In this document: positions 18,056 to 59,070 of the stretch, piece after piece
Layout of the letters: every line of letters starts with the position of its first letter
How positions within the stretch are numbered: position 1 is the stretch's first letter
From: Botryllus schlosseri
Taxonomy: Eukaryota
Direction of reading: 5' to 3'
NCBI GenBank assembly: GCA_051294905.1
Contig: CM119372.1
Coordinates: 35,094,001 to 35,158,000 of the forward strand
Length of the DNA: 64,000 nucleotides
Notes under the pieces: model-generated
Database searches by the model: none
Told to the model about the DNA's origin: nothing
The model's input: only the letters and a program-made list of their open reading frames with translations
Program-made: the position numbers and the translations under genes

Positions 18056-19345
18056 TTGTTGTTGTTGTTTATTAAAAGCAAAATTTGACGCTTATCACCT
18101 GTTGGTCTTTTGCACCACGGTCGATAATGGCGTAGGAAATATAAACAGCCAATGATGGCGTACGTATTGGATAGACATAATATTTAAAATATAGCATTTC
18201 AGTGAAACCACAGAATATCAAGGCCAGAAAAATGGAAATTTCAGAGCAGTGGAAATGAAACATTCACGGCCATTCACAAATTACGGTTGCAGGATAACAC
18301 AAATTCAATTGTGAAAGGGATGATTTGATCTTCGGTGAGGAGAATTGCATGGCGGAAATAAACAATAAATTCAGCACATTTAGCAATGGGGAAAGTACGC
18401 TGTAAAGAGAGGTCAACGTGTGACTGGGGCAGAAACCAAGGTGGAATAGATGGAAGTGGTCCAATATCATGCCGTCAAACAACGACGAGTTTGTGAGCGT
18501 ATTAAACGTTCGAATGTTAGGTCTCGTTAGACTGTAGATCTCATGCCAGCTGCCTTGAATGATATGTTGGAATAATCCATTTCCAGGCTCTTGATTCAAA
18601 ATATGACATCGACATTTCATCGAGATAGAAGGTGTTGGAGATGAAAAGGCATCTCGTGACGACATTCGGCCTGGAGCACGCATATCAAGGTACTGGTCAT
18701 TGCATTGGTACAGATCCGAAGGGCTTTATTCTCGATGGATTTGAGCTTCTTGAGATGCGTGACAGGCACAAAGAAGTATGCAGGCAAACCATGGGCCATA
18801 TGCAAAGTGAACGGTAAACGCGCAAAAGGGTTCCCTTGTTGGCTCACCAACTCGTGCAACTCAATACTCGCAGTACTTTTAGCCTCTTACGACACTTGGA
18901 CGAGATATATTCAATGTCAGGTTTGTATGAGAGTCTTCTGTCACAAACAACGCCAAGGTACTTGAATGTTTCCACCAACGGGATTCCCGAACCGTCAGGA
19001 TGCTGTGAGATAGGGGGAATTTTGTGCTCACGGGTAAAGTACCTTGCTACATTTTTTTCCGTGGATAATATCAGGCCCCACTGATTACACCAATGCTGTA
19101 AGTAAGACGTAAAACTTTGTACCGTGTGGACACGATTGGATGTGGACAAATCGCTGTCCAAGATCAGAAGATCATCAGCGAATAGTGCGTGGGAGCAATC
19201 GGCCATTGGTGGAAGTTCAGACATGATTACCGCATGGAGAAGCGGACTTATGACACTGTCTTGGGGGAGACCATTTTCCAGATAGTGTGTGTTAGAAAGG
19301 ATATTCCCGTCCTGGAAAGAACGCGTTGACTAAAAGTTGTTGATC
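18056..19345 (-). mobile_element. 5'-truncated, decayed LINE fragment (RT C-terminal part), related to the 21713-40767 LINE
   Basis: Minus-strand ENGLPQDSVISPLL, LFADD, FKYLGV-CDRRL, ALRICTNAM-ST, WHEIYSLT (shared with the large LINE); ends in AATAAA+(CAA)n at 18056-18073; frameshifted. Confidence 0.85.
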
Positions 19346-19684: not shown

Positions 19685-19849
19685 CAGTTGAACAAACTAA
19701 TTTTATATAGACATAAAGATTTCCTATATAACCTACAAATTTCTCATTAGTTCGTGTTGTTTTGTGAGTGTAACTGTTTATTTACAAATTGCGCTGCTAC
19801 TATAGACGGTCTTATCGATCATTCCTATCTAATACCGAATACTGTGCAA

Positions 19850-20468
19850 TAGGGCTGTTCAAAAATAACCTTTTTTCCTTAATCTTGCGGCTTACATGAT
19901 TAAATCGTTAGGTTGCCTTAAAAAATGACGCACACCAAATTTGAATTCATTCCAGCCAATATTCGCGGATTTCGTAGAGTTTGAAAATTTTGAATTTGCC
20001 TAAAAATGCAAAAAAACATTTTTTTTACAATTTTTCTTCCAACCTTATGAAATTGTTGCACTGTCTTCAAAAACGATGCGAAACAAATTTGACTCAATTC
20101 CAAGCTGCAGAAGCCGACTTATTCAAGTTTTTTGATGATAATTCTCGGATGATCCACCAATCAAGGATAATTCCAGAATTATCAAAGAAAAACTGAAACA
20201 ACTCCCCTTCTACGACTTCGAATTGAGTCAAATTTGTTTTGCATCGTTTTTGAAGACAGCGCAACAATTTCATGGGGTTAGCAGAAAAATTTGAAAAAAA
20301 TATTTTTTTGCATTTTTAGGCAAATTCAAAATTTTCAAACTCTACGAAACCCGCGAATATGGGTTGGAATGAATTCAAATTTGGTGTGCGTCATTTTTTA
20401 AGGCAACCTAACGGTTTAATCAAGTAACCCGCAAGATTCAGGGAAAAGGTTATTTTTGAACAGCCCTA
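19850..20468. mobile_element. Foldback hAT-type MITE (TAGGGCTGTTCAAAAA family), 619 bp
   Basis: Almost wholly self-complementary; perfect 8-bp TSD ctgtgcaa (19842-19849 / 20469-20476); empty-site homolog at 8542-8663. Confidence 0.93.
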
Positions 20469-20882
20469 CTGTGCAAGCATATTTTCTGTACCACCATCAC
20501 TGCCGTGTGTTATGTATTTTGTTTAGATGAAAATAAGGACTCTCTCTCTCTCTCTCTCTCTCTCTCTAGTACCCTTTGTCCGTATAATTCATAGTTTGTT
20601 TTTGTTGCCATTGTTACAATATATATTTCATGGTCTGTGATTTTGCTTGTTTCGTAATACTTTGCTTTTTTAGTTTTGCTTTTAAATCTGTTTAAATCCC
20701 TTCAGTCGAGAGATTCCCAAGCGCGGCCCCCAGATAGCCTTCTTGCGGCCCCCAAAGTATATTACGAAATCGATTTATGACAAAAAAATAAAATTTATAT
20801 TGATAAAATACTCTTGCTTGGCTTGGCCTCTGTAGATTTTCATTATAGAATTGCAGGAAAGTTGTGAGTATAGGCTGCTCAT

Positions 20883-21488
20883 TAGGGTTGTTCAAAAAAA
20901 CTTTTTTTTCCAAATCTCACTCGCCTAGTGACTAAATCGTCAGGTTGTCCAAGAAAACGATGCACACCAAATTTTACTCAATTCCAACCAGTCAAGGCCG
21001 TGCAATCTTGAATTGAAATTTTTAATTTATTAAAAAAAAATTGAAAAAAAAAATTCTCAAATTTTTCTGTCAACCCCATGAAATTGTTAAGCTGTCTTCA
21101 AAGACGATGCAAAACAAATTTGAGTCAATTCCGACTTGCAAAAGCGGAGTTAATCGCGTTTTTCGTTGATAATTGTCGGATTATCCTTGATCCGGGGATT
21201 ATCAATGAAAAACTCAAATAGTTCCGCTTCTACTAGTCGGAATTGACCCAAATTTGTTTTGCATCGTCTTTGAAGACAGCTCAACAATTTCACGGGGTTG
21301 ACAGAAAAATTTGAGAATTTTTTTTTTCAATTTTTTTTAATAAATTAAAAATTTTAATTCAAGATTGCACGGCCTCGACTGGTTGGAATTGAGTAAAATT
21401 TGGTGTGCATCGTTTTCTTGGACAACCTGACGATTTAGTCAGTAGGCGAGTGAGATTTGAAAAAAAAAGTTCTTTTTGAACAACCCTA
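20883..21488. mobile_element. Foldback hAT-type MITE, same family, 606 bp
   Basis: tagggttgttcaaaaa...tttttgaacaacccta, near-perfect ~300-bp arms; TSD ctgctcat/ctgctcac. Partial relatives at ~49572-49720 and 53426-53885. Confidence 0.92.
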
Positions 21489-21835
21489 CTGCTCACGTAA
21501 CGTCACTGCTGTTTCAATCCAATGTGCCCTATCTTTCCAGTTGAACGAGCAGTAGCTATAGATATAAATAGGTATTGATAACTTTCAAAACCGGAGGAAA
21601 ATCCGGAAAAATGGTAAATTTTTCCCACTTCGTGGTCGCTTGACTAAAAAAGAAAAAGATCCTCAACTCCCGGAAAATACAGTTCTTCTTTTACATTAAC
21701 AGGTGGTTGACTTTTTTTTCGCTCAGAGACGTCGTAGCGTGCGGACGCATCGCCGTTTCAGTTCCTTTAAGCTTATCAGATTGGCTAATCAAGACAAGTG
21801 TCCGACTAGCAATTTACGCTTTGGCGTAGCCAGCT

Positions 21836-23077
21836 ATGGATATGGAGACAAGTTCCTCCGCAAAGAGGAAGTCTTCAACCAACTTCAATTCTTCTGAGGA
21901 AGAATGCGGGGATGGGGAGTGGTGCTATGTAAGAGGCAAAATACCTGCCAAGATATTTGCACTGATGGATAATGCAGTTGGGAAGGAACGGGAATCTAAT
22001 AGCCAAAAAGCAACGAGTCAACAACTTGACGTGCTGCTATCGGGGTCTGATGGAACACGCATGGGACACCAACATCCTACAAAGGTATGTGAGGCACTTA
22101 AGATAAACATTGGCAATTTTGAAAAAATACGCAGACTGCCTTCTGGATATCTAGTTGTAACTTGTAAAGCCAAAGAACAGGCTGATAAACTTCTCACCAT
22201 AGATCAAATAGGAAAGGACTACAACCTGATCGAAGTCAAAACCTCATTATTTGGTGTCAAACCTTACGGAGCAAGAGCAGTACTATCCGGTGTTCCGCTG
22301 GATATCACAGAAAAAGAGATCTTGAAAGAGTTCTTTGAAATTGGCGTCAATTTCGTTAAACGGCTAAAGCGCAAAGTAGATGGAAAATATGAGAGCAGCC
22401 TCTCGATTTTGTTATGTTTCACATCTGAGACATTCCCTGACTACGTGCATTTTTCATACCTACGGTTCCGTACCAAACCTTATAACCCGCCACCGGTCAG
22501 GTGTTTTGGATGCAATAGATATGGCCACACAAAAGAGAACTGTCGTGGGAAACAATGCTGTTCAAAATGTGGGGGTCGTGATCACGAGGTTGATAAGTGT
22601 ACCAAAGATTTATGTTGCATTAATTCTAAACAACCGCACAGTGCTGCTTATGGCGGGTGCCCGGTGTACAAAGAACAGGCGAAATTACAAATCATAAAAG
22701 AACGTTCCAAGGTCACTCACTCCGAAGCTAAATCAATACTCAATTCCGAAACATCCAAAACACAAGCTACGCGTCTTTACAGTGAAGCGGCGCAGGATAG
22801 CGCAACGAGTGTCATCAATCAGCAACGATTAACAATCAACAACCCAAGTCATCGAGTCACCATCAGGAAGACTCCGCTACAAACAGCCTATCATCACATA
22901 AACAAACACATTGAAAGCAACGACCCAAACAATCATCCTGATTTGGAACCAAATAATCAATTTTCCTCAGCGTATATTGATCCGATCCATCTTATCGCAC
23001 TACTGGCTGAAATGGTGAAGCTTACATTGGCGGCCTGCAAATCAGACACGGAGTGCGATGTAGCCTACACAATATAG
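21836..23077 (+). CDS. LINE ORF1p, gag-like nucleic-acid-binding protein with CCHC zinc knuckles
   Basis: 413-aa ORF with RCFGCNRYGHTKENC, CSKCGGRDHEVDKC and a degenerate third knuckle CINSKQPH...GGC. The stop probably comes from a 2-bp TA duplication near 23074; without it the frame ends at 23202, overlapping the ORF2 ATG. Confidence 0.9.
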   Translation: MDMETSSSAKRKSSTNFNSSEEECGDGEWCYVRGKIPAKIFALMDNAVGKERESNSQKATSQQLDVLLSGSDGTRMGHQHPTKVCEALKINIGNFEKIRRLPSGYLVVTCKAKEQADKLLTIDQIGKDYNLIEVKTSLFGVKPYGARAVLSGVPLDITEKEILKEFFEIGVNFVKRLKRKVDGKYESSLSILLCFTSETFPDYVHFSYLRFRTKPYNPPPVRCFGCNRYGHTKENCRGKQCCSKCGGRDHEVDKCTKDLCCINSKQPHSAAYGGCPVYKEQAKLQIIKERSKVTHSEAKSILNSETSKTQATRLYSEAAQDSATSVINQQRLTINNPSHRVTIRKTPLQTAYHHINKHIESNDPNNHPDLEPNNQFSSAYIDPIHLIALLAEMVKLTLAACKSDTECDVAYTI

Positions 23078-23194
23078 TATCCAAAGTTTCTTTGAAATAT
23101 CTCGGTCGACAGGCAGATTTTGTCACGATGAGAAACATTTTCGAACCCTTCCATGATATCAATGACACCAATCCGATGACAAATCCCACAAACG

Positions 23195-23674
23195 ATGGAT
23201 AATATAGGACTAAACTTTTTACTGTGGAATTGTAGAGGATTATATAGGAAGCATCACGAACTAAAACACCTTCTCACGACTCTGGAACGGGCTCCAGATG
23301 CGATAATTCTCCAGGAAACACACCTTATCGAAAAATAGGCCTACTCTCCGAAATTTCCAGGATATCACTGTCACAGAAAGGACAAATCCCCTCATTCCGG
23401 TGGATTGGCGATCTTTGTTAAATCTTCACATAACTCCAGCATCGAAGCAGATGCTACAACCGACATCGAAGTACTTTGTGTGAAGCTTCATGGCCTATCA
23501 TTGTACAATGTGTACATCCCACCCGACTGCCGCTTACGCGACAGTGATGCGAGCATTTTCGAGACGTTACCGCCAAAATCCATTGTCTCTGGCGACTTCA
23601 ATGCACATCATTGGTCGTGGAGTTACAAAACGAACCAACGAGGGACTAAACTTTTTAATGTCATCGATCACGCA
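23195..23674 (+). pseudogene. LINE ORF2, 5' part (APE endonuclease)
   Basis: LLWNCRG, LQET, GGLAIFV, NVYIPP, GDFNAHH motifs; in-frame TAG at 23336; broken at ...VIDHA by the palindromic insertion. Confidence 0.92.
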
Positions 23675-24851
23675 AGTAGTAGTAGAGAAATGGTGGATAT
23701 AGGCGCATATCGTCTTTTAACTTAAAGAAACCAACTTCTCTAATATAATAAAGAAACAAAGGATAACCGACTTACGCATTTTGCAGAATTGCAGTGGGTA
23801 GTTCCCCCCGTGACGGATTGCTGCAGAGATTTGATCAATAATTTCTGTGGCTGAAGGTGTGATGTCGCTACGGCTAGTGATTTTCGGTTCAAATGAGGGT
23901 GATATATGTGTATTTTTGGTATCATTTTCAAGGCTGCTTGCAAAATTACGTCACTCACTATCGGGCGATGAGTGGATTCCTAAATTAGAAGTGGTCCTGC
24001 CTGGCGATTTAAAACTCGGCTGACCTATCACGTCGATCAATGATTTCCGGTTCAATTGAATACGGGTGCCATCTGCGTATAATGAAAAGTCGTTCGTGTT
24101 GAATAAAGTTTTATTATTAAACGAGTTTTCTCAAGGTTATTGTAATCTTTGCTGTAATTTTCCGTGTATGGCGATCGAATCTTTCTGGATCTCTACGGTG
24201 TGTAACCCGACGACACGGAAAAGTTCGCCTGGCGTGACTCGGCGTGTAATGGCGGGTTTGATTGACTGATGATGACAACTTATGCTATGTTTCAAGCGTA
24301 TGGTCAAGGTCACACGAATCGATGTAAAGTCCCGCTTGGTTGAATTGTCGTTCTTCGATGGGGGTGGGGGACAGTTGGTTGTTTTTAAAGGCTACATTCA
24401 AAACTACTACCGTAACCCGCTGTCAGTCAGGCGCAGAGACGCGCGGACGTATAGATTTGGTATTATGAAACCATCCTGCTCCTGTTTATATTTTAAAACT
24501 CAACTGGCGTATGATTTCTCTTGGATCTCTCGATCGATGATATCCGGTTCAATCGAGTGTGACTGCAAGCTATCTGTGTGGTGCATGTGTTATCAAATCA
24601 AACTCGTTTGTGTCATTGAGTCCATGGTATATCACATTGATATGATTTTAAGCATACAGTTTTGAATAATCATATGGCGTTCGATTGCTGCTACTTGCTA
24701 GCCGCCATGTTCAAGCGGTTGTTGACGTCGTCCAAAGCTACTTGCTGCATCTCAGGACAGTAGATGGCGTATGTGCCAGCAGCGAGCCTCGTATACGGTA
24801 CAAACGAACGTCAATTAGCATGGAAAAGCAACGCATTGGAGGATCTTTACC

Positions 24852-25458
24852 GGATTATTTTTGGATTTACGTTTATCCGGACCCGGATTTGTGGATTTTA
24901 CATGCTACTCGCCAAATAATTTCGCTGGCAAATGATGTCCATTGTCCATGAATCAGCCGTGGTCGATCAAGCGTGATGCGATGATGTCAGTCGGAGTTCA
25001 AAATACTCGTTTGTATCAATTACATCAAAGTAGTCATTTTTCTTCTGACTCGTGACTCTTGCAACGATCTGGTTCCTGTATCGAGAACTACGATACTCGA
25101 TTCCATTGTACGCCGACGAATCGGGGCTCGTATACTATACATATACGCGTGAATTCGGATTGGAGTACAGCGTATTGGATGATTTTTACTGGATTACATT
25201 TGGATTTACGCTTATCCGGACCCAGATGTTTTAAATTTTACATGCTACTGGTGGATTAATTGCGCTAGCAAGTGATGGCCATAAATCAGCCGTGATCGAT
25301 CTAGCGTGATACGATGATGTCAGTCGGGGTTTAAAATACTTGTTTGGATTAATTATATCAACGTAGTCATTTTCTTCTGACTCGTGACTCTTCCGTCGAT
25401 GTGGTTCCTGTATTGAGAACTATACGATACTCGATTCCATTGTACGCTGACGTATCGG
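24852..25458. repeat. Diverged tandem duplication (~270-bp block, ~340-bp period) inside the arm; mirrored at 35630-36236
   Basis: tggatttacg-ttatccggaccc...cgatactcgattccattgtacgc-gacg-atcgg at 24852-25124 and 25191-25458. Confidence 0.85.
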
Positions 25459-26541
25459 AAAAGTTCGCCTCGTTTCGTAGGATACTGGTGGAATGGCTTA
25501 ATTTCGCTGAATATGAGTTTGGGAATATTTGGCGTTATATTCGAGTGATAAAAAAAAAACTTATCTCTAGGCAAATAGACGTACTTGCTGATTGATTATA
25601 GCCTGCGACCCAAATTCCCATTGTCTCTGTCCACAATCGCTTGTGAAGTGGTGCAATGAATCGGTGATCCGGCTCCTATTTTTCATATAATCCGTGTAAG
25701 CGACGCCTTCTAGAAGCTCAGAAGTGGGCAGTTTTACAAGTCGGTAGCTAAGGGACACAAATGACGAAAATCATCCTGGTGTAAATGACCGTATTAGTAG
25801 TCTACAAGCCCCATGAATATCACAAACAACGAATCAAACTCTACCCGCCATGCTATCAACTGCAGTGGGACGTATTTTCAATATATTGAGATATGTAAAT
25901 TTCATTCCTAATATTTTCAATCTTGCAAGCGAACCATCTTTTAAGGCGGCAATAATACAAGATTTGTCGTTATCGGCTAACGCTCTCAAGGGCGATTTGG
26001 TGTATGGAAATGTGAATATTGATTACGACGGTGCGATCTTGGACGGTTCGCCGCGGTAAACAATCCTTCATATCAGGAAACAATCATGCGCAGTCTGAAA
26101 ATATAGTCGAACATTCGTACCATGCTACAACACCAAGCACAAAGCGTTATTGGAAACAATTGCGATGAAGCAGCGATCGACATGCATTGTACAAAGACAT
26201 AACAATAGTCACGCACACATACACACTAGAATACTAGTCAGATTATCGGACCACGACCTAACATATCGATCTGGCTTTCCGCCCCATGCCACCTCATTTT
26301 GTCGCTTTCCTTTCATATTCTTTGCTTTAGTTTTCATTCGGTGTGCATTCCTCTTTTCTACTTTACCTATGCCAAGGTGGGTGTCTGATTTCAATGACTA
26401 CTCCAAGCTCCAACTCGTTTCGACACCTTATGTCTTTCATTGTATCGCAGTTTTGTATAGTGTTTTGAAACGATGAAAATATTAATAAACTGACAATGAT
26501 ACACTAAATTCTCCCAAGAACAGCTACAATACAGTAACGGT

Positions 26542-27690
26542 CAGAGGTGGTCAGTAACGAAGTACTTCTACTTTTGGAAGTACTCAAGTAGTTCTGCTCT
26601 ACTTCTGGTACTTACTCAAGTAGATATGATTTTCTCTACTTCTATTTTGACTTCGTAATATTTTGTGATCTACTTACTTACTTTTCGCTATTTTCAGTTT
26701 ATCAAGTAGAAGTAGTTTTATCCCCCAATACGAAAGCTAGCCTGAGGAGTTTCGGGGCTGTTTTCACGGAGCAACAAGATTTAATATTTATAAAAGTCAA
26801 GTAAAGCCCAGAAATTTTGTTGCGCTTCGCGCATAGTAGTGATGAAGTGACAAATATGTTTTGATGAAAGTATCAGTGAATATAATTTAGACACCGGATT
26901 GTTTGGTTCCTATCACACCGCATTGTCGCCCATATCAAATATTTCATCACAGTAAATATGGCCCACCATAACGTTTAAAACTACCGATTCGCAATCTAGC
27001 AATTACCTATGTTAATCTGGAAAATCCAGCTTTTTTGAACGTTACACCTGATTTAGCAGATCACCTTTGAAGTTTTATGGACAAAAGACATGCAATATAT
27101 TTTCCGATTTTAAGAAGTGGTATTTGTATTTCAATGCAAGTATCATACTTTAAGTTCGAATTACTTTTAGTTCTTTTGTCTGCAGAAGATACATGTTGAA
27201 GCATATAAGCAAGTGTAGTAATGCCTCTATTTTCCGAAAATAAAGCTACACTAAATATAACTTTAACGATCCACAATATTTGTTATTACCGTATACTAAT
27301 CACGTAAAAGTGATGAAACCGTATCCGATACAACTTCCACGTGTTGCTGTTCGCCTAAACTTGGGGCCTTATAATATAAGGCAGGGCGCCATGCCATGAT
27401 ATTCTCTAAAAACGGGGTCTTCTAGTAAACAAAGTGTTAGTGTCGCCTTTTCATATCAATACTATAAATTGCATGCCCATGATGCGAAACAATGCTTATT
27501 CTGTCGGGAATTGATACCACCCATGATGCATTAATACGAATCAAGCTCTCTGCCCCTGCCGCATAGCTCGATTCGCAGATTTTGACAGTCCATGCGAACA
27601 GATTAAGACTGTTTTCAAAACTACTTACTTACTTGAGTAGATGTAAAATCAGTCAATTCTACTTCCACTTCAAGTAGTTTTAGGGGATCA
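26542..27690. mobile_element. Host-type non-autonomous DNA element inside the arm (mirrored at 33398-34546)
   Basis: Starts cagaggtggtcagtaacgaagtac; clustered tactt/aagtag subterminal repeats at 26560-26715 and 27620-27680; right terminus not found. Confidence 0.55.
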
Positions 27691-28706
27691 TTTTCGTTGA
27701 GCATTAAAATACGGTCTCTTGCAGAGCGTGACGGTCAAAAAAAAATGTGTGTCTCAAATATTCAGCGGAAGCCGCCGTGCATTATTATACGAGACTCTTA
27801 TATATGGCTTGGAATACAGCACCGATGCCTTGCAATTCAGAGGCTGGTGTATCGAGAGCGTCCATGGCAGTTGATCGAATAACCATATGAGAAGATGGTC
27901 AAATCTGATTGTTTACCTCTCTATTATAAATATTCTATTTCGGAGTGTTTCCTTGTATATTCCCGAAAGCGACGACATAGAGCCGATTATTACTGATCTC
28001 CCGATGTGAGAATGAAACTCGTGAAAAGAAGCTTGTGATCTATAATGGATTACAGAATATTCCGATGTCAACGCTGACGTTCGTGAAAATGGTGCGATTC
28101 GTTATAGTTCTGATCTTGTGTGACTACCCCAAACAGTAGATTCTCGACTATAAAACGTTTGTGTAGCTATAATTCGTATCCAAGTTGTTGAACTAAGACA
28201 TATGACGGTAGAATCGAATGCCATACATAAAAACTTATTCAAATACCCATACTAAGAGTGAGCATTACAACGTTGAGTCACTTGAAAAGTTGTCGTGGTA
28301 GCAGAATATTGTTTATGAATCGATATGGCCAGTAACAGTTGCATTGTTCGCACATTTAATGCTATTTATCGATATCGGATCTCCTTATGAAATATCAGTG
28401 TGATAACCAAGTGCGTGCCAACTGCTCTTTGTCGATGGAAATAAACACCTGTCTCCCATATTGCTGTCTGAAAACAATCTGTTTTCATGCAATACGCATA
28501 TTTGCAAGGCAAGTCCTGCTAATTATGTTGTCCGTTCGTTTTTGTATTGACATTAAGTGTCTTGTATCGCTCCTTTGGCGATGGTAATTTGCTGGAAAAA
28601 GTCAGCACCTAAGATTAAAAATTACCCAGAGAACGAGCTCTGTCTTCGTGACCTTTCAATATTCACCTATGGTTTTGAATTCAGAGCAAATGACATTATT
28701 GTTGCC

Positions 28707-30192
28707 AATATGTGAATTGCTATCGAAGATTCGTAGTAATGGTTTTGTGTGTTTTTAGGATGATATATTTCTCAAATAGTTTCCCAAAATGAGAGACTGT
28801 TATGGAAAAACACCTCGATCCGGATCCGCCAGTACAAGGATGTGTAAATATCGCGTCGGGCTCTCACCGCTCCGAATTATATAGACTCGCAACGTTCGCC
28901 AGGTTTTCGAGATTATCATACCCAAAACGTGCAGATTTAGCATCTGACGGATATTACTGGCTAGGGTTCGAAGACAAAATTAAATGTTTCGGATGCAGTA
29001 TTTCACTCGAAAAATGGGTTGAAAAGGATTCGAATGTAAGTTGTCATGAAGCGAGTTGTGTTCGACACGTATTCAATATTCCCGTTGAAAGATCGAACTT
29101 CAGGAGTCTATTACGGGAGTTTAAGCTCCAAATCGAGACACCGCAAGTCAATAACAGCGACATAAAACTTGCGAATATCATTGACCGAGAACACGCGTGT
29201 TTGATTAAGAACCTCGACTTGAAAAGGGAATCGAAGCGACGCGAAACCTTCAAGAAATGGCCCAGCTATCCAATACCCCACGCAGTAGGCGAGTTGGCGA
29301 AACAAGGGTTTTCCTATCTCGGTAACTTAGACAGAACGCAGTGCTTTAGCTGCTTCGGTGTTCTTCGCAACTGGAAACCCATAGACGACGTATCGGAAAT
29401 ACACCTTACACATTTTCCAAAATGTACTTTCGCGCGTGGTAGCTTTTCAGGAAATATCGCACTAGCTGAGCACGACCGCGGGAATTTGGACGACTTGCTT
29501 CACGAGAAAATACGACGGCTCACTATCAATGTGAAAGAACCAGATGAGCCCTCCGAGGATGAAAAACACTATCTTGCTGAACTATTCCCTTGCCTAAACC
29601 CCGCGAATCCTGTATAGTCGTCCTTGTCACGAAGAATAGCAACCTTCGACGAAGGTTGGGATCCCGCTAAAATCAATGCTAGCGTTGAGCAACTAGCAAA
29701 TGCGGGGTTTTATTACATCGATTCGGACAAGACAAAATCTTTTTACTGCAATGGTGGACTTCGGTGGGACCGGACAGACGAGGTTTGGACGGAACATGCT
29801 AAATGGTTTCCGCAATGCGAGTACGTACTTCGTATGAAAGGTGTCGAATTCGGGCGACGCATCGAAAACACATATCCAAATCTCAATCTTCCGATTATTA
29901 TAAACCCCATCACGAAGTTGGAGTTGACTAAACGCCAAAATGTTCTGCGGAATCGTCAATCAAACGATGGATCACCGTTGAATTGCATCGAAAATGGGAG
30001 AGGCCGTGACGTGTAAACGATGTGAAATAAACATAAATGAATATGACTATAGCATGTGGACATCTTTGCATTGTTTCTAGACTTGTGGGACTGACGTAGA
30101 ACGCAGTGGTGGCAGTCATGAAGTACTTCTATTTTTTCTCAGAATTGTGGTAGGTTTTAATATGTGAATTGCTATCGAAGATTCGTAGTAAT
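28707..30192 (+). repeat. 34-bp perfect direct repeats bracketing the IAP gene (28707-28740 and 30159-30192)
   Basis: aatatgtgaattgctatcgaagattcgtagtaat at both positions; mirrored in the right arm. Confidence 0.95.
28802..30110 (+). pseudogene. Intronless inhibitor-of-apoptosis (IAP/BIRC) gene: BIR1-BIR2 ORF (271 aa), in-frame stop, BIR3, frameshifted RING remnant
   Basis: BIR motifs RLATF..LASDGYY..KCFGC..H...C; RRETF..LAKQGF..QCFSC..H..HFPKC; RIATF..LANAGFYY..SFYC..EHAKWFPQC. ORFs 28802-29617 and 29624-30016 share a frame and are separated by one TAG. TCKRC (30009-30023) and ACGHLC (30052-30069) lie in shifted frames. Confidence 0.92.
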
Positions 30193-30687
30193 AGTTCTGT
30201 AGAATTTTGGTTCAACCTAGAAAAAGTTCTTATGCAGACGTATTATATACCGTTGGAAAGATAATTTTATCAGCTTTTCAATGATGGGTTTTGTCATTTT
30301 TTTACCTTGGGGAAAAAAGTTATGACCAAAAACGTGCCAGGGGATGAAGCACGATTTTGCCTAACATTATAATACAATTATAAGCTAAAATACGATGGAA
30401 ACGATACCTTAATAACAGAATACAACATTATAAATTGGAACATTACTATCAGCAAAGCAAACTAACAATCGGACAGCAAAAAAAAATGAAACATAACTTT
30501 ATTAAGAAGTATTTATCATACGTTTAAGGGGTAAAAGTTGACCGATACGGAGATAATAGGCGAGATTTCATCGAAACAAAGGGTTTTTCTTCTATAAGCA
30601 AGGTCATGGTTAAACCAAGTATAAAGATGTAAAAACGATATCTACAGGTTTTACCTAATTACACTACATACTCAAGTGCCTTGTGTT

Positions 30688-30766
30688 GGACTACTTCTAT
30701 TTCTATCAGTTTTACTACCAGTTAGAATGTCCCGTCTAATCCAACTGATAGAAATAGAAGTAGTCC
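30688..30766. repeat. Hairpin in the spacer: 24-bp perfect stem, 31-nt loop
   Basis: ggactacttctatttctatcagtt (30688-30711) / aactgatagaaatagaagtagtcc (30743-30766). Confidence 0.95.
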
Positions 30767-30774
30767 CCAAGTAG

Positions 30775-33700
30775 TCCCCAAGGTAAAAAAATGACAAAAC
30801 CCATCATTGAAAAGCTGATAAAATTATCTTTCCAACGGTATATAATACGTCTGCATAAGAACTTTTTCTAGGTTGAACCAAAATTCTACAGAACTATTAC
30901 TACGAATCTTCGATAGCAATTCACATATTAAAACCTACCACAATTCTGAGAAAAAATAGAAGTACTTCATGACTGCCACCACTGCGTTCTACGTCAGTCC
31001 CACAAGTCTAGAAACAATGCAAAGATGTCCACATGCTATAGTCATATTCATTTATGTTTATTTCACATCGTTTACACGTCACGGCCTCTCCCATTTTCGA
31101 TGCAATTCAACGGTGATCCATCGTTTGATTGACGATTCCGCAGAACATTTTGGCGTTTAGTCAACTCCAACTTCGTGATGGGGTTTATAATAATCGGAAG
31201 ATTGAGATTTGGATATGTGTTTTCGATGCGTCGCCCGAATTCGACACCTTTCATACGAAGTACGTACTCGCATTGCGGAAACCATTTAGCATGTTCCGTC
31301 CAAACCTCGTCTGTCCGGTCCCACCGAAGTCCACCATTGCAGTAAAAAGATTTTGTCTTGTCCGAATCGATGTAATAAAACCCCGCATTTGCTAGTTGCT
31401 CAACGCTAGCATTGATTTTAGCGGGATCCCAACCTTCGTCGAAGGTTGCTATTCTTCGTGACAAGGACGACTATACAGGATTCGCGGGGTTTAGGCAAGG
31501 GAATAGTTCAGCAAGATAGTGTTTTTCATCCTCGGAGGGCTCATCTGGTTCTTTCACATTGATAGTGAGCCGTCGTATTTTCTCGTGAAGCAAGTCGTCC
31601 AAATTCCCGCGGTCGTGCTCAGCTAGTGCGATATTTCCTGAAAAGCTACCACGCGCGAAAGTACATTTTGGAAAATGTGTAAGGTGTATTTCCGATACGT
31701 CGTCTATGGGTTTCCAGTTGCGAAGAACACCGAAGCAGCTAAAGCACTGCGTTCTGTCTAAGTTACCGAGATAGGAAAACCCTTGTTTCGCCAACTCGCC
31801 TACTGCGTGGGGTATTGGATAGCTGGGCCATTTCTTGAAGGTTTCGCGTCGCTTCGATTCCCTTTTCAAGTCGAGGTTCTTAATCAAACACGCGTGTTCT
31901 CGGTCAATGATATTCGCAAGTTTTATGTCGCTGTTATTGACTTGCGGTGTCTCGATTTGGAGCTTAAACTCCCGTAATAGACTCCTGAAGTTCGATCTTT
32001 CAACGGGAATATTGAATACGTGTCGAACACAACTCGCTTCATGACAACTTACATTCGAATCCTTTTCAACCCATTTTTCGAGTGAAATACTGCATCCGAA
32101 ACATTTAATTTTGTCTTCGAACCCTAGCCAGTAATATCCGTCAGATGCTAAATCTGCACGTTTTGGGTATGATAATCTCGAAAACCTGGCGAACGTTGCG
32201 AGTCTATATAATTCGGAGCGGTGAGAGCCCGACGCGATATTTACACATCCTTGTACTGGCGGATCCGGATCGAGGTGTTTTTCCATAACAGTCTCTCATT
32301 TTGGGAAACTATTTGAGAAATATATCATCCTAAAAACACACAAAACCATTACTACGAATCTTCGATAGCAATTCACATATTGGCAACAATAATGTCATTT
32401 GCTCTGAATTCAAAACCATAGGTGAATATTGAAAGGTCACGAAGACAGAGCTCGTTCTCTGGGTAATTTTTAATCTTAGGTGCTGACTTTTTCCAGCAAA
32501 TTACCATCGCCAAAGGAGCGATACAAGACACTTAATGTCAATACAAAAACGAACGGACAACATAATTAGCAGGACTTGCCTTGCAAATATGCGTATTGCA
32601 TGAAAACAGATTGTTTTCAGACAGCAATATGGGAGACAGGTGTTTATTTCCATCGACAAAGAGCAGTTGGCACGCACTTGGTTATCACACTGATATTTCA
32701 TAAGGAGATCCGATATCGATAAATAGCATTAAATGTGCGAACAATGCAACTGTTACTGGCCATATCGATTCATAAACAATATTCTGCTACCACGACAACT
32801 TTTCAAGTGACTCAACGTTGTAATGCTCACTCTTAGTATGGGTATTTGAATAAGTTTTTATGTATGGCATTCGATTCTACCGTCATATGTCTTAGTTCAA
32901 CAACTTGGATACGAATTATAGCTACACAAACGTTTTATAGTCGAGAATCTACTGTTTGGGGTAGTCACACAAGATCAGAACTATAACGAATCGCACCATT
33001 TTCACGAACGTCAGCGTTGACATCGGAATATTCTGTAATCCATTATAGATCACAAGCTTCTTTTCACGAGTTTCATTCTCACATCGGGAGATCAGTAATA
33101 ATCGGCTCTATGTCGTCGCTTTCGGGAATATACAAGGAAACACTCCGAAATAGAATATTTATAATAGAGAGGTAAACAATCAGATTTGACCATCTTCTCA
33201 TATGGTTATTCGATCAACTGCCATGGACGCTCTCGATACACCAGCCTCTGAATTGCAAGGCATCGGTGCTGTATTCCAAGCCATATATAAGATTCTCGTA
33301 TAATAATGCACGGCGGTTTCCGCTGAATATTTGAGACACACATTTTTTTTTGACCGTCACGCTCTGCAAGAGACCGTATTTTAATGCTCAACGAAAATGA
33401 TCCCCTAAAACTACTTGAAGTGGAAGTAGAATTGACTGATTTTACATCTACTCAAGTAAGTAAGTAGTTTTGAAAACAGTCTTAATCTGTTCGCATGGAC
33501 TGTCAAAATCTGCGAATCGAGCTATGCGGCAGGGGCAGAGAGCTTGATTCGTATTAATGCATCATGGGTGGTATCAATTCCCGACAGAATAAGCATTGTT
33601 TCGCATCATGGGCATGCAATTTATAGTATTGATATGAAAAGGCGACACTAACACTTTGTTTACTAGAAGACCCCGTTTTTAGAGAATATCATGGCATGGC

Positions 33701-36700
33701 GCCCTGCCTTATATTATAAGGCCCCAAGTTTAGGCGAACAGCAACACGTGGAAGTTGTATCGGATACGGTTTCATCACTTTTACGTGATTAGTATACGGT
33801 AATAACAAATATTGTGGATCGTTAAAGTTATATTTAGTGTAGCTTTATTTTCGGAAAATAGAGGCATTACTACACTTGCTTATATGCTTCAACATGTATC
33901 TTCTGCAGACAAAAGAACTAAAAGTAATTCGAACTTAAAGTATGATACTTGCATTGAAATACAAATACCACTTCTTAAAATCGGAAAATATATTGCATGT
34001 CTTTTGTCCATAAAACTTCAAAGGTGATCTGCTAAATCAGGTGTAACGTTCAAAAAAGCTGGATTTTCCAGATTAACATAGGTAATTGCTAGATTGCGAA
34101 TCGGTAGTTTTAAACGTTATGGTGGGCCATATTTACTGTGATGAAATATTTGATATGGGCGACAATGCGGTGTGATAGGAACCAAACAATCCGGTGTCTA
34201 AATTATATTCACTGATACTTTCATCAAAACATATTTGTCACTTCATCACTACTATGCGCGAAGCGCAACAAAATTTCTGGGCTTTACTTGACTTTTATAA
34301 ATATTAAATCTTGTTGCTCCGTGAAAACAGCCCCGAAACTCCTCAGGCTAGCTTTCGTATTGGGGGATAAAACTACTTCTACTTGATAAACTGAAAATAG
34401 CGAAAAGTAAGTAAGTAGATCACAAAATATTACGAAGTCAAAATAGAAGTAGAGAAAATCATATCTACTTGAGTAAGTACCAGAAGTAGAGCAGAACTAC
34501 TTGAGTACTTCCAAAAGTAGAAGTACTTCGTTACTGACCACCTCTGACCGTTACTGTATTGTAGCTGTTCTTGGGAGAATTTAGTGTATCATTGTCAGTT
34601 TATTAATATTTTCATCGTTTCAAAACACTATACAAAACTGCGATACAATGAAAGACATAAGGTGTCGAAACGAGTTGGAGCTTGGAGTAGTCATTGAAAT
34701 CAGACACCCACCTTGGCATAGGTAAAGTAGAAAAGAGGAATGCACACCGAATGAAAACTAAAGCAAAGAATATGAAAGGAAAGCGACAAAATGAGGTGGC
34801 ATGGGGCGGAAAGCCAGATCGATATGTTAGGTCGTGGTCCGATACTCTGACTAGTATTCTAGTGTGTATGTGTGCGTGACTATTGTTATGTCTTTGTACA
34901 ATGCATGTCGATCGCTGCTTCATCGCAATTGTTTCCAATAACGCTTTGTGCTTGGTGTTGTAGCATGGTACGAATGTTCGACTATATTTTCAGACTGCGC
35001 ATGATTGTTTCCTGATATGAAGGATTGTTTACCGCGGCGAACCGTCCAAGATCGCACCGTCGTAATCAATATTCACATTTCCATACACCAAATCGCCCTT
35101 GAGAGCGTTAGCCGATAACGACAAATCTTGTATTATTGCCGCCTTAAAAGATGGTTCGCTTGCAAGATTGAAAATATTAGGAATGAAATTTACATATCTC
35201 AATATATTGAAAATACGTCCTACTGCAGTTGATAGCATGGCGGGTAGAGTTTGATTCGTTGTTTGTGATATTCATGGGGCTTGTAGACTACTAATACGGT
35301 CATTTACACCAGGATGATTTTCGTCATTTGTGTCCCTTAGCTACCGACTTGTAGCACTTCCCACTTCTGAGCTTCTAGAAGGCGTCGCTTTTACGGATTA
35401 TATGAAAAATAGGAGCCGGATCACCGATTCATTGCACCACTTCACAAGCGATTGTGGACAGAGACAATGGGAATTTGGGTCGCAGGCTATAATCAATCAG
35501 CAAGTACGTCTATTTGCCTAGAGATAAGTTTTTTTTTTATCACTCGAATATAACGCCAAATATTCCCAAACTCATATTCAGCGAAATTAAGCCATTCCAC
35601 CAGTATCCTACGAAACGAGGCGAACTTTTCCGATACGTCAGCGTACAATGGAATCGAGTATCGTATAGTTCTCAATACAGGAACCACATCGACGGAAGAG
35701 TCACGAGTCAGAAGAAAATGACTACGTTGATATAATTAATCCAAACAAGTATTTTAAACCCCGACTGACATCATCGTATCACGCTAGATCGATCACGGCT
35801 GATTTATGGCCATCACTTGCTAGCGCAATTAATCCACCAGTAGCATGTAAAATTTAAAACATCTGGGTCCGGATAAGCGTAAATCCAAATGTAATCCAGT
35901 AAAAATCATCCAATACGCTGTACTCCAATCCGAATTCACGCGTATATGTATAGTATACGAGCCCCGATTCGTCGGCGTACAATGGAATCGAGTATCGTAG
36001 TTCTCGATACAGGAACCAGATCGTTGCAAGAGTCACGAGTAAGAAGAAAAATGACTACTTTGATGTAATTGATACAAACGAGTATTTTGAACTCCGACTG
36101 ACATCATCGCATCACGCTTGATCGACCACGGCTGATTCATGGACAATGGACATCATTTGCCAGCGAAATTATTTGGCGAGTAGCATGTAAAATCCACAAA
36201 TCCGGGTCCGGATAAACGTAAATCCAAAAATAATCCGGTAAAGATCCTCCAATGCGTTGCTTTTCCATGCAAATTGACGTTCGTTTGTACCGTATACGAG
36301 GCTCGCTGCTGGCACATACGCCATCTACTGTCCTGAGCTGCGGCAAGTAGCTTTGGACGACGTCAACAACCGCTTGAACATGGCGGCTAGCAAGTAGCAG
36401 CAATCGAACGCCATATGATTATTCAAAACTGTATGCTTACAATCATATCAATGTGATATACCATGGACTCAATGACACAAACGAGTTTGATTTGATAACA
36501 CATGCACCACACAGATAGCTTGCAGTCACACTCGATTGAACCGGAAATCATCGATCGAGAGATCCAAGAGAAATCATACGCCAGTTGAGTTTTAAAATAT
36601 AAACAGGAGCAGGATGGTTTCATAATACCAAATCTATACGTCCGCGCGTCTCTGCGCCTGACTGACAGCGGGTTACGGTAGTAGTTTTGAATGTAGCCTT

Positions 36701-37410
36701 TAAAAACAACCAACTGTCCCCCACCCCCATCCAAGAACGACAATTCAACCAAGCGGGACTTTACATCGATTCGTGTGACCTTGACCATACGCTTGAAACA
36801 TAGCATAAGTTGTCATCATCAGTCAATCAAACCCGCCATTACACGCCGAGTCACGCCAGGCGAACTTTTCCGTGTCGTCGGGTTACACACCGTGGAGATC
36901 CAGAAAGATTCGATCGTCATACACGGAAAATTACAGCAAAGATTACAATAACCTTGAGAAAACTCGTTTAATATTAAAACTTTATTCAACACGAACGACT
37001 TTTCATTATACGCAGATGGCACCCGTATTCAATTGAACCGGAAATCATTGATCGACGTGATAGGTCAGCCGAGTTTTAAATCGCCAGGCAGGACCACTTC
37101 TAATTTAGGAATCCACTCATCGCCCGATAGTGAGTGACGTAATTTTGCAAGCAGCCTTGAAAATGATACCAAAAATACACATATATCACCCTCATTTGAA
37201 CCGAAAATCACTAGCCGTAGCGACATCACACCTTCAGCCACAGAAATTATTGATCAAATCTCTGCAGCAATCCGTCACGGGGGGAACTACCCACTGCAAT
37301 TCTGCAAAATGCGTAAGTCGGTTATCCTTTGTTTCTTTATTATATTAGAGAAGTTGGTTTCTTTAAGTTAAAAGACGATATGCGCCTATATCCACCATTT
37401 CTCTACTACT
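30775..37410 (-). repeat. Right inverted arm (6,636 bp)
   Basis: Reverse complement of the left arm; scattered substitutions, no net indel. Confidence 0.97.
30978..32286 (-). pseudogene. Mirror copy of the IAP gene in the right arm
   Basis: ORFs 31471-32286 and 31072-31464 translate identically to the left copy, including the same internal stop. Confidence 0.92.
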
Positions 37411-40400
37411 CACGCAAACTTAGTCATGTTGAACTCTTCAACTACAACACATATCAATCTCGCGAACAATGCTGTCAATCGTTGGTCGTTGCTAGATTTA
37501 ACACTCGCTACTCAAGATATAGCCGCGAGATGCCAAACTGAAATATCTTTGTCGCTGCTAGGAAGTGATCATTTCGTAGTATTCATGAAGTATATGACAA
37601 ACTCGGCGATATCTTCTTTTTATCGACCACCATCGTGGTCTCTCGAGAAAGCAAATTGGAAGAAGTTTTCTCGAATTGAAGATGAAATGATCGATTTGTC
37701 CGATCAACGAGAAGTGGAGTCTGCAAATACTATTCTAACAAAATGCATAAAGACAGCAGCGAATCGATCAATACCAAAGACAAAGAATATGGACAAGAAA
37801 TCTGTCCCTTGGTGGAGTCCCAAATGTGAGAGAATGATTCGGAGGAAGAGAGCAGCATATTTACGAATGAAGCGCACATTTGATATAATAGACGCTATAA
37901 ACTTCAAAAAAGTCAGGTCCGCATGCAGAAGAACTATACTCGAAGCAAAACGTCTTTGCTGGGAGTCTTTCTGTTCTTCGCTGAATAATAAATCACGTTT
38001 AAATCGCGTATGGCGGGTTATTTGTAGCATTCCTGGTACAACAGCGCATCAGCAAATTCCTGATATCCGAGTAAATGGAATAGATCACACCGAAGACACG
38101 TCAAAAGCTGAAATAATAGGCGAGCACTTCGCTACCATAAGCAGATCCGATAACTACGCTTCAAATTTCCTCCTTTCCAATTGTAAACCTGACCAGCATA
38201 TTACATCGTGTCTACCTTTCAATGTGAATCTGGAAGAACCAATCAATTTGCCGTTTCAGATGTCGGAACTTGGGGAGGCACTACAGAGTCGGAAGATCTC
38301 TTGTCCTGGGCATGATTCCATAAATTATCAAATGCTGCAAAATCTTTCGGCGTCAGCCCAGACCGAACTTCTTAAGCTATATAACATTTCACGAAGAGAT
38401 GGAAAATTACCTAAATCCTGGAAAAATGCTGTCGTCGTTCCTATCCTAAAACCACAAAAGGATCCTTCTGAAGCGGGATCGTATCGACCCATCTCATTGT
38501 CCAGCCATCTTTGTAAGGTTATGGAAGTGATGATAGTAAATAGACTTCAGTGGTTTCTTGAGACGAACAATCTTCTTCATCACTCCCAGTCTGTTTTCGG
38601 CACGATCGCAGTACCCTAGACCATATACTTCGCCTACATGACACCATATATAAGGCACTGAACAATCAGAGATCAGTAGTTGCAGTTTTTCTCGACATCG
38701 AAAATGCCTACGATATGGTATGGCGAAATGGTTTGCTCTATAAATTGTCTGCCCTCGGCGTACATGGGAGGATGCTGAAATGGATATCAGATTTTCTTCG
38801 TGACAGATCGTTCTCGGTTCGCATTGGTTCTTCGCTATCCACCCCATTTCAACTTGAAAATGGTCTTCGGCAAGGAAGCGTTATAAGCCCCATCCTCTTT
38901 GCAGTGATGATAAATTATTTGGCGCCCTTATTACAGGTGGGAAATGTTCTTTTTGCTGACGACTGTGCAGTATGGGACAGTGAGTTGTCAATAACTAACG
39001 CAGTAGCGGAAGTTCAAAAATCATTAGACGTGATACACAAATGGTGCTCCGAGTGAGTTTTCAAGATCTCTACTGACAAGTCAATTGCAGTAATATTCAC
39101 CAGAAAAATTAGAGTTGGTCATCATACGCTAGATTTCGGTGGAGCTCCGTTAAGATTTGAAGAAAAAGCGAAGTATTTAGGAGTCACATTTGATAGAAGA
39201 CTAACATACAAATATCACATTGAAAATATTGCCTCGAAATGCACGAAGCGGTTGAATATGATACGACTCCTAACCGGTACTTCTTGGGGGGCAAGTCGAT
39301 CTTCTTTGTTACAATTGTATCGAGCGATGATTAGGAGTACAATCGATTACGCGATGCCAGCATACTTTTTTGCCGCGAAGAAACATTTGAATAGACTGAA
39401 TATAATACATAATCAAGCCCTGAGGCTCTGTTGCGGTGCAATGCGAAGCACTCCGATTTGCGCTTTAGACGCCGAATGTAACGAGATGCCGCTTCACACC
39501 CGGCATTTACACCTCTGCCTTAATTATCGCTATTTTCTTCTGGCCCATTCCGCAAACAACAATCCAGCAAACGAATTATTAGATGATACCTGGCATGAAA
39601 TATACAGTTTGACAAATCCAAAATTTCGAACCTTCAGCCTTTTATCAAAAATCGACTTGCCCCAACATTTCACAATAGATACGTATCGACACACAACTGT
39701 GCAACCATGGAAAATTCCTGTTCCCTGCGTAGATTTTCATCTACTGCATTTCAAGCGGTCTAATACCTCGTTTGAACAGTTACGTTCGGATTCCATTTCA
39801 TATATAACAGAAAAATACATTGGATACGACCATATTTCTACGGATGGTTAAAAAAACGACTTTGGAACAGGATGTGCAGCGTATATCCCAAACCACGTGT
39901 CGATAACCAAACGATGTTCCTTCTATTCGTCAAGCTTCACAGCTGAACTACCTGCTATCTCCGAGGCACTGAAGTATAGATTTTAGAAAACGGTTCGTAT
40001 GTCAAGAAATGTCGGACAGTTGCAGTGCATTGCAGCATCTACAAAAAGCGCGTTTCCGAACGATGAGTAAGTTATCAAATGAAATTTCAACTAATCTACT
40101 TGAGCTTGAATTCCAAAAAACACATATTATCTTCGTTTGGATACCAGCACACGTCGATATTAAAGGCAACGAGACAGCAGACCAAGTGGCAAAGTCCGTA
40201 GCAACGTCATCTGAAGGGCGGAATCCTACAAATACGGTTTTGACAAGGCATGAAGCTAAGCAAGTCATACTGAAATATTGCAAGCAAATTTGGAACCAAC
40301 ATTACCTCGAAGAAGATCAAGGCTCTCATTTCAAACTTTTCGTGAATCCCTTCATCATAGTACACCACCTCTTGAAAATCGCATTAGTGACCGAATATTA

Positions 40401-40667
40401 TTTCGATTGCGCTCAGGCCATTGTGGACTGAACGCACACTTGTTTAAGATTGGAATCGTGCCTTCACCACATTGTAGCTCCTGCAATGAACCTGAGACGG
40501 TTGAGCACTTTATAATGAACTGCCCCTCGCATGAATTTCATAGAACGTTCCTGCGTCGTGCTTGTGTTTGTATAAATATTCCATTTCGCCTCTTCAACTT
40601 ATTAACGACTCCAAACATTTTGAAATATGTGGTAGAATATGGGCTGAGTTGTAATAGATATATTTGA
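37411..40667 (+). pseudogene. LINE ORF2, 3' part (end of APE, reverse transcriptase, RNase H, C-terminal CCHC)
   Basis: Resumes HANLVMLN...LDLTL...GSDH; YRPISL, QGSVISPILF, FADD, KYLGV; RNase H STDG / AEL / SDS / WIPAHVDIKGNETAD; RLRSGH...CSSC...ETVEHFIMNC; several frameshifts and stops. Confidence 0.93.
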
Positions 40668-40782
40668 ATTGCTGCTATACATTAGAATTGAGTACTGTAG
40701 TGGTGGCGCACAAGACCTAACGGTGATAGGCGCCACTCTTTTTCTTCTTCCAATAAATAAATGAAGAAACAGGTTGTTGACT

Positions 40783-57909: not shown

Positions 57910-58755
57910 TCACTTTACGCGGTCGCCGTACCATTCCGGACACTTTCTAACCCTATTAGATCGGCGCGGAATTGGCGTATGCGACGAATTGCCCTTCAAT
58001 AACGAAGTCTCATTCTCGGGCTCTTTATCATCCAACGCCTCGGCACGATCATTCGGTGTCGGAATGATTTCAGTCCTGGAACCGGCTCTCGCTTCCGGTT
58101 TCTCCACATCGATGGTGGTAGGGTTCGGAGCCAAGTCTCTCACAGACACGGTGGACTCTCTTCCATCTTCGTAGCGTATTAACGCGTACTTAGGATTCAC
58201 ATCAAGCAGCTCGACCGGGTCGCAAAGCGGTTCAGACTTCGAAGATCGATGGAAACGTCGTAACAGTACAGAGTCGGCGAAAAGTAACCAATCAGGAATC
58301 GAGGGTCCAATCATCGAGCGTCTAGGAAAACCAAAAAATCGTTCATGTGGTGTTACGTTTGTAGCTGTACAAAGCAGCGATCGCACGCTATGTAGCGCAT
58401 CATTCAACACCATTTCCCACGCAGATTCCGGCAGCCGCTCCGTAGCAAGAATCAATTTGATGGTTCTCCAAATCGTTTGGTTGACGCGATCACACTGAGA
58501 ATTACCCGTAGGATGATACGGAGTAGACCTGCTAGTAGCGACAGCACGTTTGGTTACAAACGTAATCAAATCTCTGGAGATAAAAGAGTTTCCTCTATCG
58601 CTATGGATATATTCGGGAACTCCTACGAGCGAAAACAGCGTCTTCAAATTGCGCATCACGGTTGGAGTAGACATATCACGACACGGAAAAACAAAAGGAA
58701 ATCGACTGTATTCATTCACAACAATCAATAAAAACCTGTTTCTCCCAGACACGGG
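57910..58755 (-). pseudogene. LTR-retrotransposon (Gypsy-like) integrase, core and C-terminus, 5'-truncated
   Basis: LLIVVNEYSRF, GVPEYIHSDRG, STPYHPTGNSQCDRVNQTI, TPHERFFG, RRSNR..K.P; integrase is at the 3' end of pol; the frame is cut at 58755/58756. Confidence 0.92.
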
Positions 58756-58792
58756 AGTAGTATAGTCGCTCGCTCGCATGACGCAATGGGGC

Positions 58793-59070
58793 TCTTATGG
58801 GCGGGGTGGTGACGCGCCTGAAAATCGGGGGTGGTGATGCGCCTTTTTAGACCCCCCTTGCGGCGGTGATGCGCCATGTGTTCTTATGGGTGCGGTCGTG
58901 ATTCGCCTTTTCGGCTATAGGCTGCGGCGGTGACGCGCCAGAAAACCCGGGGTGGTGACTCGCCTTTTTTGCTATAGGTGGTGGCGGTGAGTCGTATTTC
59001 ATGTATTCTTACGGGTTCTGTGGTGATTCACCGTGTGTTCTTATGGGCGGGGTCGTGATTCGCACTTTCG
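58793..59070. repeat. GC-rich degenerate array: 9 copies of GGTGA(c/t)(g/t)CGCC-like motif, 121-bp higher-order period
   Basis: Copies start at 58808, 58833, 58865, 58897, 58929, 58954, 58986, 59022, 59054. Confidence 0.9.

Follow-up and report, generated by a model that had tools for sequence, protein, structure and literature searches.

A palindromic Maverick-type element carrying an IAP gene in the Botryllus schlosseri genome

As described in the available part of Barreat and Katzourakis (2021, PMC8097293), autonomous Mavericks, or Polintons, have (AGT)2...(ACT)2 ends, a 6-bp target duplication and intronless genes, and purifying selection in them is taken as a sign of particle formation and reinfection. 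The present analysis concerns a 13.7-kb element with ends of this kind in a 64,000-nucleotide (nt) stretch of the Botryllus schlosseri genome (assembly GCA_051294905.1, contig CM119372.1, positions 35,094,001 to 35,158,000 of the forward strand); this whole stretch is termed the window, and its first letter is position 1. Each arm of the element carries an intron-free gene of the IAP family encoding BIR domains. The element is probably a decayed copy of a helper-dependent Maverick/Polinton satellite carrying a captured IAP. It shares the (AGT)2//(ACT)2 terminal inverted repeats, as well as the 6-bp duplication, of the autonomous elements, as these appear in the accessible portion of PMC8097293, but none of the Maverick core genes (protein-primed PolB, rve integrase, ATPase, protease, major and minor capsid) was found in it. 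Furthermore, its inverted repeat makes up approximately the whole element, and the gene under constraint is host-derived cargo.

Homologues of IAP and Bcl2 have been described in adintoviruses, and animal Mavericks are known to carry IAP as an accessory gene (Starrett et al. 2021, PMC8502044, in the part available). One Botryllus Maverick family, termed A below, fits this pattern. In contrast, the palindrome carries IAP twice and probably depends on a helper, and no IAP was found in the end-matched candidate helper. Nematode Mavericks also carry non-core genes, and the cargo of the window element differs from those named in the accessible portion of that report (10.1101/2022.07.12.499685). Dispersed, partly intronless IAP duplicates in animals have been ascribed to retrotransposition or DNA transposons, with no carrier named in the part of the source available (PMC13159474); here, the carriers are seen and the IAP copies are element cargo.

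No report of fully palindromic, cargo-bearing Polinton satellites was found among the titles and abstract openings searched, a scope that lay outside subscription papers and Repbase. A planarian retrotransposon with anti-apoptotic cargo was looked for in the literature and not found. IAPs on animal Mavericks and dispersed intronless IAPs are already known. Snap-back defective genomes and satellite viruses are likewise helper-dependent and self-complementary, retaining only the replication ends. The Botryllus palindromes differ from these in being integrated in the germline and in carrying a selected cargo gene.

Ends, copies and helper candidates of the palindrome

The element lies within the endonuclease of a long interspersed nuclear element (LINE), whose reverse transcriptase (RT) and RNase H resume beyond it. 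The insertion comprises the following features, ORF denoting an open reading frame:

23669..23674 (no strand): left target-site duplication, 6 bp, CACGCA; identical hexamer at 37411-37416
37411..37416 (no strand): right target-site duplication, CACGCA
23675..37410 (no strand): entire palindromic, non-autonomous Maverick-type element with AGT...ACT ends, 13.7 kb
23678..30313 (+): left arm, 6636 nt
30775..37410 (-): right arm, 6636 nt
21830..23674 (+): interrupted LINE, 5' part, with ORF1 (no Pfam hit) and endonuclease (Exo_endo_phos match)
37411..40670 (+): interrupted LINE, 3' part, with the remaining endonuclease, RT and RNase H (Pfam)

The two arms show 19 mismatches over 6636 nt, and the IAP region is free of them. 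All mismatches are confined to the outer 4.1 kb, the inner 2.5 kb of the arms being identical; this clustering, a pattern noticed post hoc, gives a Kolmogorov–Smirnov p of 0.001 for 15 merged events. The outer-only position of the differences suggests in-place conversion near the centre of the window element; the pattern across the family accords just as well with homogenisation in the course of fold-back replication.

When 40 of 446 candidate matches were scored, at least 24 loci matched the IAP region at 92-100%, 20 of them as convergent pairs, and the window copy is no one-off local insertion. AGTAGT ends and 6-bp duplications bound six of six sister palindromes (five perfect, one with one mismatch). 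Similarly, AGT ends and 6-bp duplications were present in all four viewed members of a second palindrome lineage, in which the IAPs point outward and show 75% DNA identity. Arm identity is 99.6-99.95% within an element against ~85-98% between elements. The terminal 15-mer of the window element occurs at 42 genome sites (control, 3), forming 17 pairs and 8 single sites; 14 pairs bound IAP palindromes and three bound Mavericks with an rve integrase. Three of the eight single sites are unrelated sequence, and at twelve single-ended or partial terminal matches no Maverick core genes were found. The palindrome moves as a unit.

Mavericks were located by their terminal pattern and by a capsid-like protein; a genome search for Pfam DNA_pol_B_2 gave no match, and none in any control either. 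Those bounded by the terminal 15-mer, designated family B, measure 16.4 kb, 17.7 kb and 39 kb, the last with insertions. The ends of the window element are identical to family B at 113-117 of 130 nt, against 69 of 130 for family A, and family A was rejected as the helper for this low end identity. Apart from the first 0.6 kb, only a single 130-nt piece of the window element resembles family B in its DNA. The genes of family B include an rve integrase (E 1.7e-10) and a P-loop protein, along with a protein that is 36-37% alike to the capsid-like protein of family A; a 1323-aa frame contains one polymerase motif. In ten family-B stretches, together spanning three copies in full, no BIR was found. 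Family A has other ends and carries an intronless, RING-less three-BIR IAP next to a caspase-like ORF. The ends of the palindrome thus match one autonomous family (B), and its gene is related to the IAP of another (A).

The caspase-like ORF of family A (Peptidase_C14, E 1e-10) lies directly upstream of its IAP (L076:4731-6727 and L077:3609-5777), and a single-BIR gene is present near the other end of these elements. The Maverick capsid-like protein itself has at least 100 genome matches (of 274 candidates), which fall into several families and are mostly stop-free.

The IAP gene, its origin and its constraint

The IAP region of the window comprises:

28802..29617 (+): BIR1-BIR2 ORF, 271 aa, intron-free, ending in TAG
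29618..30016 (+): BIR3 and tail, in the same frame as BIR1-BIR2; the family frame ends here at codon 404
~30012..30110 (+): RING remnant, out of frame, its CxxC and CxHxC pieces in different frames; degenerate family-wide
31072..32286 (-): mirror IAP copy, identical to the left copy including its lesions

The initial annotation had described an intron-free BIR-BIR-BIR gene with one TAG between BIR2 and BIR3, a changed BIR3, a broken RING and an open 271-aa frame, and both arms bear this out. It had also placed the two convergent copies ~0.9 kb apart, in agreement with the ~0.85 kb between RING remnants (1055 nt between frame ends). The BIR1-BIR2 and BIR3 parts both exceed the Pfam BIR cut-off, and the BIR2 ligands are retained in the 271-aa frame. 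The TAG and the BIR3 ligand change occur in none of 17 sister arms and are private to the window copy, whereas RING loss is family-wide: an intact RING motif occurs in none of the 17, and an in-frame C-terminal RING was found neither in these arms nor in the window copy. From these counts, the family is predicted to encode a three-BIR protein that lacks the RING, and the two-BIR version is a lesion private to the window copy.

In a comparison of one arm from each of 18 elements, the frame is uninterrupted (404-405 codons) in seven and broken in 11, each at its own place. Both arms were compared in 12 elements: six of the seven broken ones have their lesions in each arm, and 88 private substitutions occur in both arms against 18 in one arm. 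The window locus is a dead, decayed copy of this family. In a search of solved structures, an open family member matched the BIR3 of cIAP1 (E ~1e-24). Compared with the BIR domains of cIAP1 and NAIP, the family IAP lacks a RING, its BIR1 has the short ligand spacing of styelid IAPs, and every palindrome lineage viewed has a BIR3 shorter by one residue.

The closest proteins to an open sister IAP are those of Styela clava (40-44% identity), followed by those of other ascidians. In three trees, the palindrome IAPs were sister to the family-A IAP with support of 100/98, 97/96 and 97/97, and in a fourth, which contained three faulty host rows, with 89/95. The identity between the two is only 47-50%, and all palindrome and family-A IAPs nest within the styelid IAPs. 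Intron-containing IAP genes are present elsewhere in the genome, so that host IAPs are not all intronless. Of the best 150 matches (of 605) in a host BIR2 exon search, 141 lie in long intron-free frames and nine are exon-like, and eight of these nine cluster on one contig within 0.35 Mb. Host IAP genes with introns form tandem clusters at C12 7.17-7.52 Mb and C5 16.13-16.19 Mb; the C12 cluster is the likely source pool of the palindrome IAP. On tree and exon evidence, the palindrome IAP descends from the host cluster of intron-containing genes, with a Maverick-borne gene as its nearest relative. This supports the earlier proposal that a Maverick-like agent had captured a host IAP, the palindrome being multicopy and Maverick-ended and its IAP falling among host styelid-type IAPs. 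The loss of introns would imply a reverse-transcription step.

A single capture of all mobile IAPs was also considered. In a tree with one host gene, all mobile IAPs, including that of a giant 40-kb RT-bearing element, formed one clade (99/98), and approximately unbiased (AU) tests rejected the grouping of palindrome with host (p 0.006) and of palindrome with giant-element IAP without family A (p 0.02). This support was lost once the tree included five further host paralogs (partial exons, 229 columns): the giant-element IAP then shifted beside one of the host genes (80/71), and the data neither established nor rejected a single capture (AU p 0.32). In the enlarged tree, two rows with mis-assigned pieces and one near-duplicate were dropped and one row was corrected. 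Two proteins annotated to Endozoicomonas (P0012, P0107) are ascidian-like BIR-RING proteins that group with ascidian IAPs, by transfer or contamination.

Selection was assessed from the ratio of nonsynonymous to synonymous substitution rates (dN/dS) among family copies. Variants common to several copies comprise 32 synonymous and 12 nonsynonymous changes (dN/dS 0.10), against 46 synonymous and 92 nonsynonymous private variants (dN/dS 0.54; Fisher p 7.5e-6 for shared vs private). Between the inward and outward palindrome lineages, dN/dS is 0.17 at a dS of ~1. As an independent gauge, the seven most distant of 13 sisters show non-coding flank distances of 0.051-0.070, against dN of 0.014-0.023. 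The internal branches of the palindrome family are under purifying selection; from the low dN/dS of shared variants and the flank yardstick, it follows that the IAP ORF was constrained along the spreading lineages, with relaxation in single copies.

Simple copying within a genome would not be expected to leave purifying selection on a trans-acting gene of a non-autonomous element. The signal indicates either a stage at which the incoming element is the sole source of the protein, such as infection or an episome, or a hidden donor. In Mavericks and in retroviral env, purifying selection has been read as reinfection rather than complementation in trans (PMC8097293, in the part available).

Proposed helper-dependent spread and its alternatives

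The ends, duplications, copy number, gene ancestry, constraint and decay described above can be joined in one account. The element is most likely a family-B Maverick end that became linked to unrelated DNA and then folded back. A Maverick lineage would have brought it the IAP from the host cluster. It is proposed that the family-B polymerase copies the palindrome and that the integrase inserts it by means of the shared ends, while fold-back (hairpin) replication or arm-to-arm conversion would maintain the likeness of the arms. During element activity, a RING-less three-BIR protein may be made and may block apoptosis where helper and satellite replicate, so that lineages with a working IAP would leave more copies. 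Integrated copies would then fall silent and decay, the window copy being an example.

Several points weigh against this reading. The dN/dS values come from simple Nei–Gojobori counting rather than a codon model, and in the five closest sisters dN (0.011-0.015) is barely under the flank distance (0.014-0.025). An autonomous donor that escaped notice could have been the site of selection, since scoring covered only 40 of 446 candidates. The branch of family A is long (0.6-1.1), and its attraction to the palindrome branch is possible. The 1323-aa frame of family B has no Pfam hit and is a putative polymerase by size and one motif, and the frames that we take to be its capsid and protease are so labelled from motif and gene order. 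Trans-mobilisation, the hairpin intermediate, expression, anti-apoptotic function and packaging are all proposed from sequence. Transcription, sampled in four raw RNA runs from three studies (7-22 million reads scanned in each, or 3-13% of a run), yielded 107, 60, 25 and 19 reads on 27700-30774. No read covered 28833-29141 (BIR1) in any of the four, and in the three bulk runs most reads diverge from the window stretch further along.

The reads include no joints and none in the last bin, and they pile up mainly on a dispersed repeat close to the centre. At the BIR3 change, all 11 reads have the sister state and none has the window state, although the sampled individuals may lack the insertion. 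From the depth table, the signal of the entire family is estimated at no more than ~1 read per kb per million, and RNA reads are at trace level only. The runs may miss the cells or the moment of element activity.

It is unlikely, though worth serious weight, that the IAP is a neutral hitch-hiker, with selection acting in an autonomous Maverick donor that is now rare or lost and the palindromes being repeated fold-back wrecks in which the IAP only decays. Family-A Mavericks do bear a related RING-less IAP, private variants are near neutral, 11 of 18 arms are broken, and only part of the candidates in the searches were scored. Against this, the family-A IAP is just 47-50% identical, the next-nearest DNA matches (75-76%) are other palindromes, and the ten family-B stretches yielded no BIR. 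Furthermore, the constrained variants are common to palindromes that share the same centre and kilobases of non-coding arm. There is a small chance that open copies are instead kept for a benefit to host cell survival, for example in germline or stem cells, and not for element replication. The seven open arms and the many intron-free IAP copies would fit such a role, but the constraint lies on shared branches rather than on single integrated copies (0.10 vs 0.54), and expression is at trace level.

The initial annotation had further suggested that convergent transcription yields double-stranded RNA that silences host IAP paralogs, which is highly improbable. The convergent copies are perfectly complementary over >2.5 kb and a few reads run in both directions, but none of 1441 21-mers of the IAP region recurs in the five host IAP stretches compared, of 13 with the remaining host paralog stretches counted, where exact matches reach 13-15 nt at most, and none recurs in the family-A IAP or three giant-element IAPs. 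In contrast, 846 of the 1441 are shared with one sister, and any hairpin RNA would therefore target its own family; such RNA could act on the palindromes themselves. The sister lineage with outward-pointing IAPs and the protein-level constraint also argue against silencing of host genes. Its other suggestion, a RING-less two-BIR product, is extremely improbable as an adaptive truncated protein. The frame is open and the BIR2 ligands are kept, yet the stop is found in none of 17 sisters, sisters break at unrelated codons, all 11 reads carry the sister BIR3 state and BIR1 is unread in all four runs. That the palindrome is a fold-back misassembly is scarcely conceivable: the inner 2.5 kb of the arms are identical, but the duplication flanks a cleanly split LINE, the arms differ at 19 positions and 20 loci have the same layout.

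If the palindromes are helper-dependent satellites, a further step can be put forward only tentatively, and it is rather doubtful: that they are true satellites of an animal Maverick virus, packaged in the helper capsid, passing between cells or individuals and supplying an anti-apoptotic gene that the helper lacks. Packaging is suggested by their sizes, since 12 of 14 palindromes measure 12.1-15.3 kb, just below the 16.4-17.7 kb of the helper. If true, an animal germline would harbour a mutualistic pair of satellite and helper, and most IAP copies of this animal would be virus-like cargo traded among several mobile agents rather than a host immune expansion. The family offers a testable way to ask if Mavericks of animals are live viruses that have satellites. 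Dispersed intronless IAP expansions also gain a concrete carrier, and IAP counts in such genomes may be mostly element cargo.

Further features of the element and other mobile elements

The centre of the window element has the following features:

30314..30774 (no strand): apparent spacer between the arms, 461 nt; secondary
30160..30653 (no strand): secondary insertion, ~490 nt, with an 8-bp direct repeat; confined to one subfamily
30688..30766 (no strand): family centre, a short stem with a ~37-nt loop (DNA fold -22.3 kcal/mol), seen also in the sister centres L013, L015 and L025

The spacer is secondary because the right arm lacks ~0.4 kb beside the centre that sisters retain in both arms. 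In the insertion at 30160-30653, a 34-nt copy of 28707-28740 (sequence upstream of the IAP) precedes a dispersed 460-nt repeat; the insertion possibly arose by a template switch. A 34-nt direct repeat flanking the IAP was considered as a cassette signature and rejected, the downstream copy being part of this secondary insertion; that copy is at the expected place in four of 13 plus-strand loci. Besides the IAP, each arm has only two ORFs of at least 100 aa, neither with a Pfam hit. Each arm also contains a 340-nt tandem duplication of ~81% identity (24788-25458, mirrored at 35630-36300).

An intron-rich host gene, which the initial annotation had placed in the window, was not identified among 83 flanking ORFs of at least 72 aa, a threshold that short exons would escape; the only Pfam matches among these ORFs were a LINE RT piece and one weak DUF match.

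The 40-kb element, which may be more novel than the palindrome finding, is multicopy and has GG...CC ends; it does not feature in the available part of PMC13524379. One copy lies at C11 ~19.498-19.538 Mb and a second extends from L058:2936 to L060:976; a possible 8-bp duplication was seen in one of the two, and no long terminal repeat (LTR) was seen. It carries two IS1595/ISXO2-like transposase ORFs, two large membrane-protein-like ORFs, a leucine-rich repeat, an intronless 3-BIR-RING IAP, a ubiquitin-conjugating enzyme, a zinc-knuckle gag-like ORF and an RT-RNase H with a KptA-like tail, and no rve integrase was seen among its scanned ORFs. Approximately 25 IAP frames in the genome are similar to its own, with an IAP dN/dS of 0.15-0.25. 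Elsewhere in the window, an LTR-type integrase ORF lies at 57910-58794 (-) and a separate RT fragment at 18844-19329 (-), and two related 620-nt foldback elements, resembling miniature inverted-repeat transposable elements, occupy 19843-20475 and 20876-21495.

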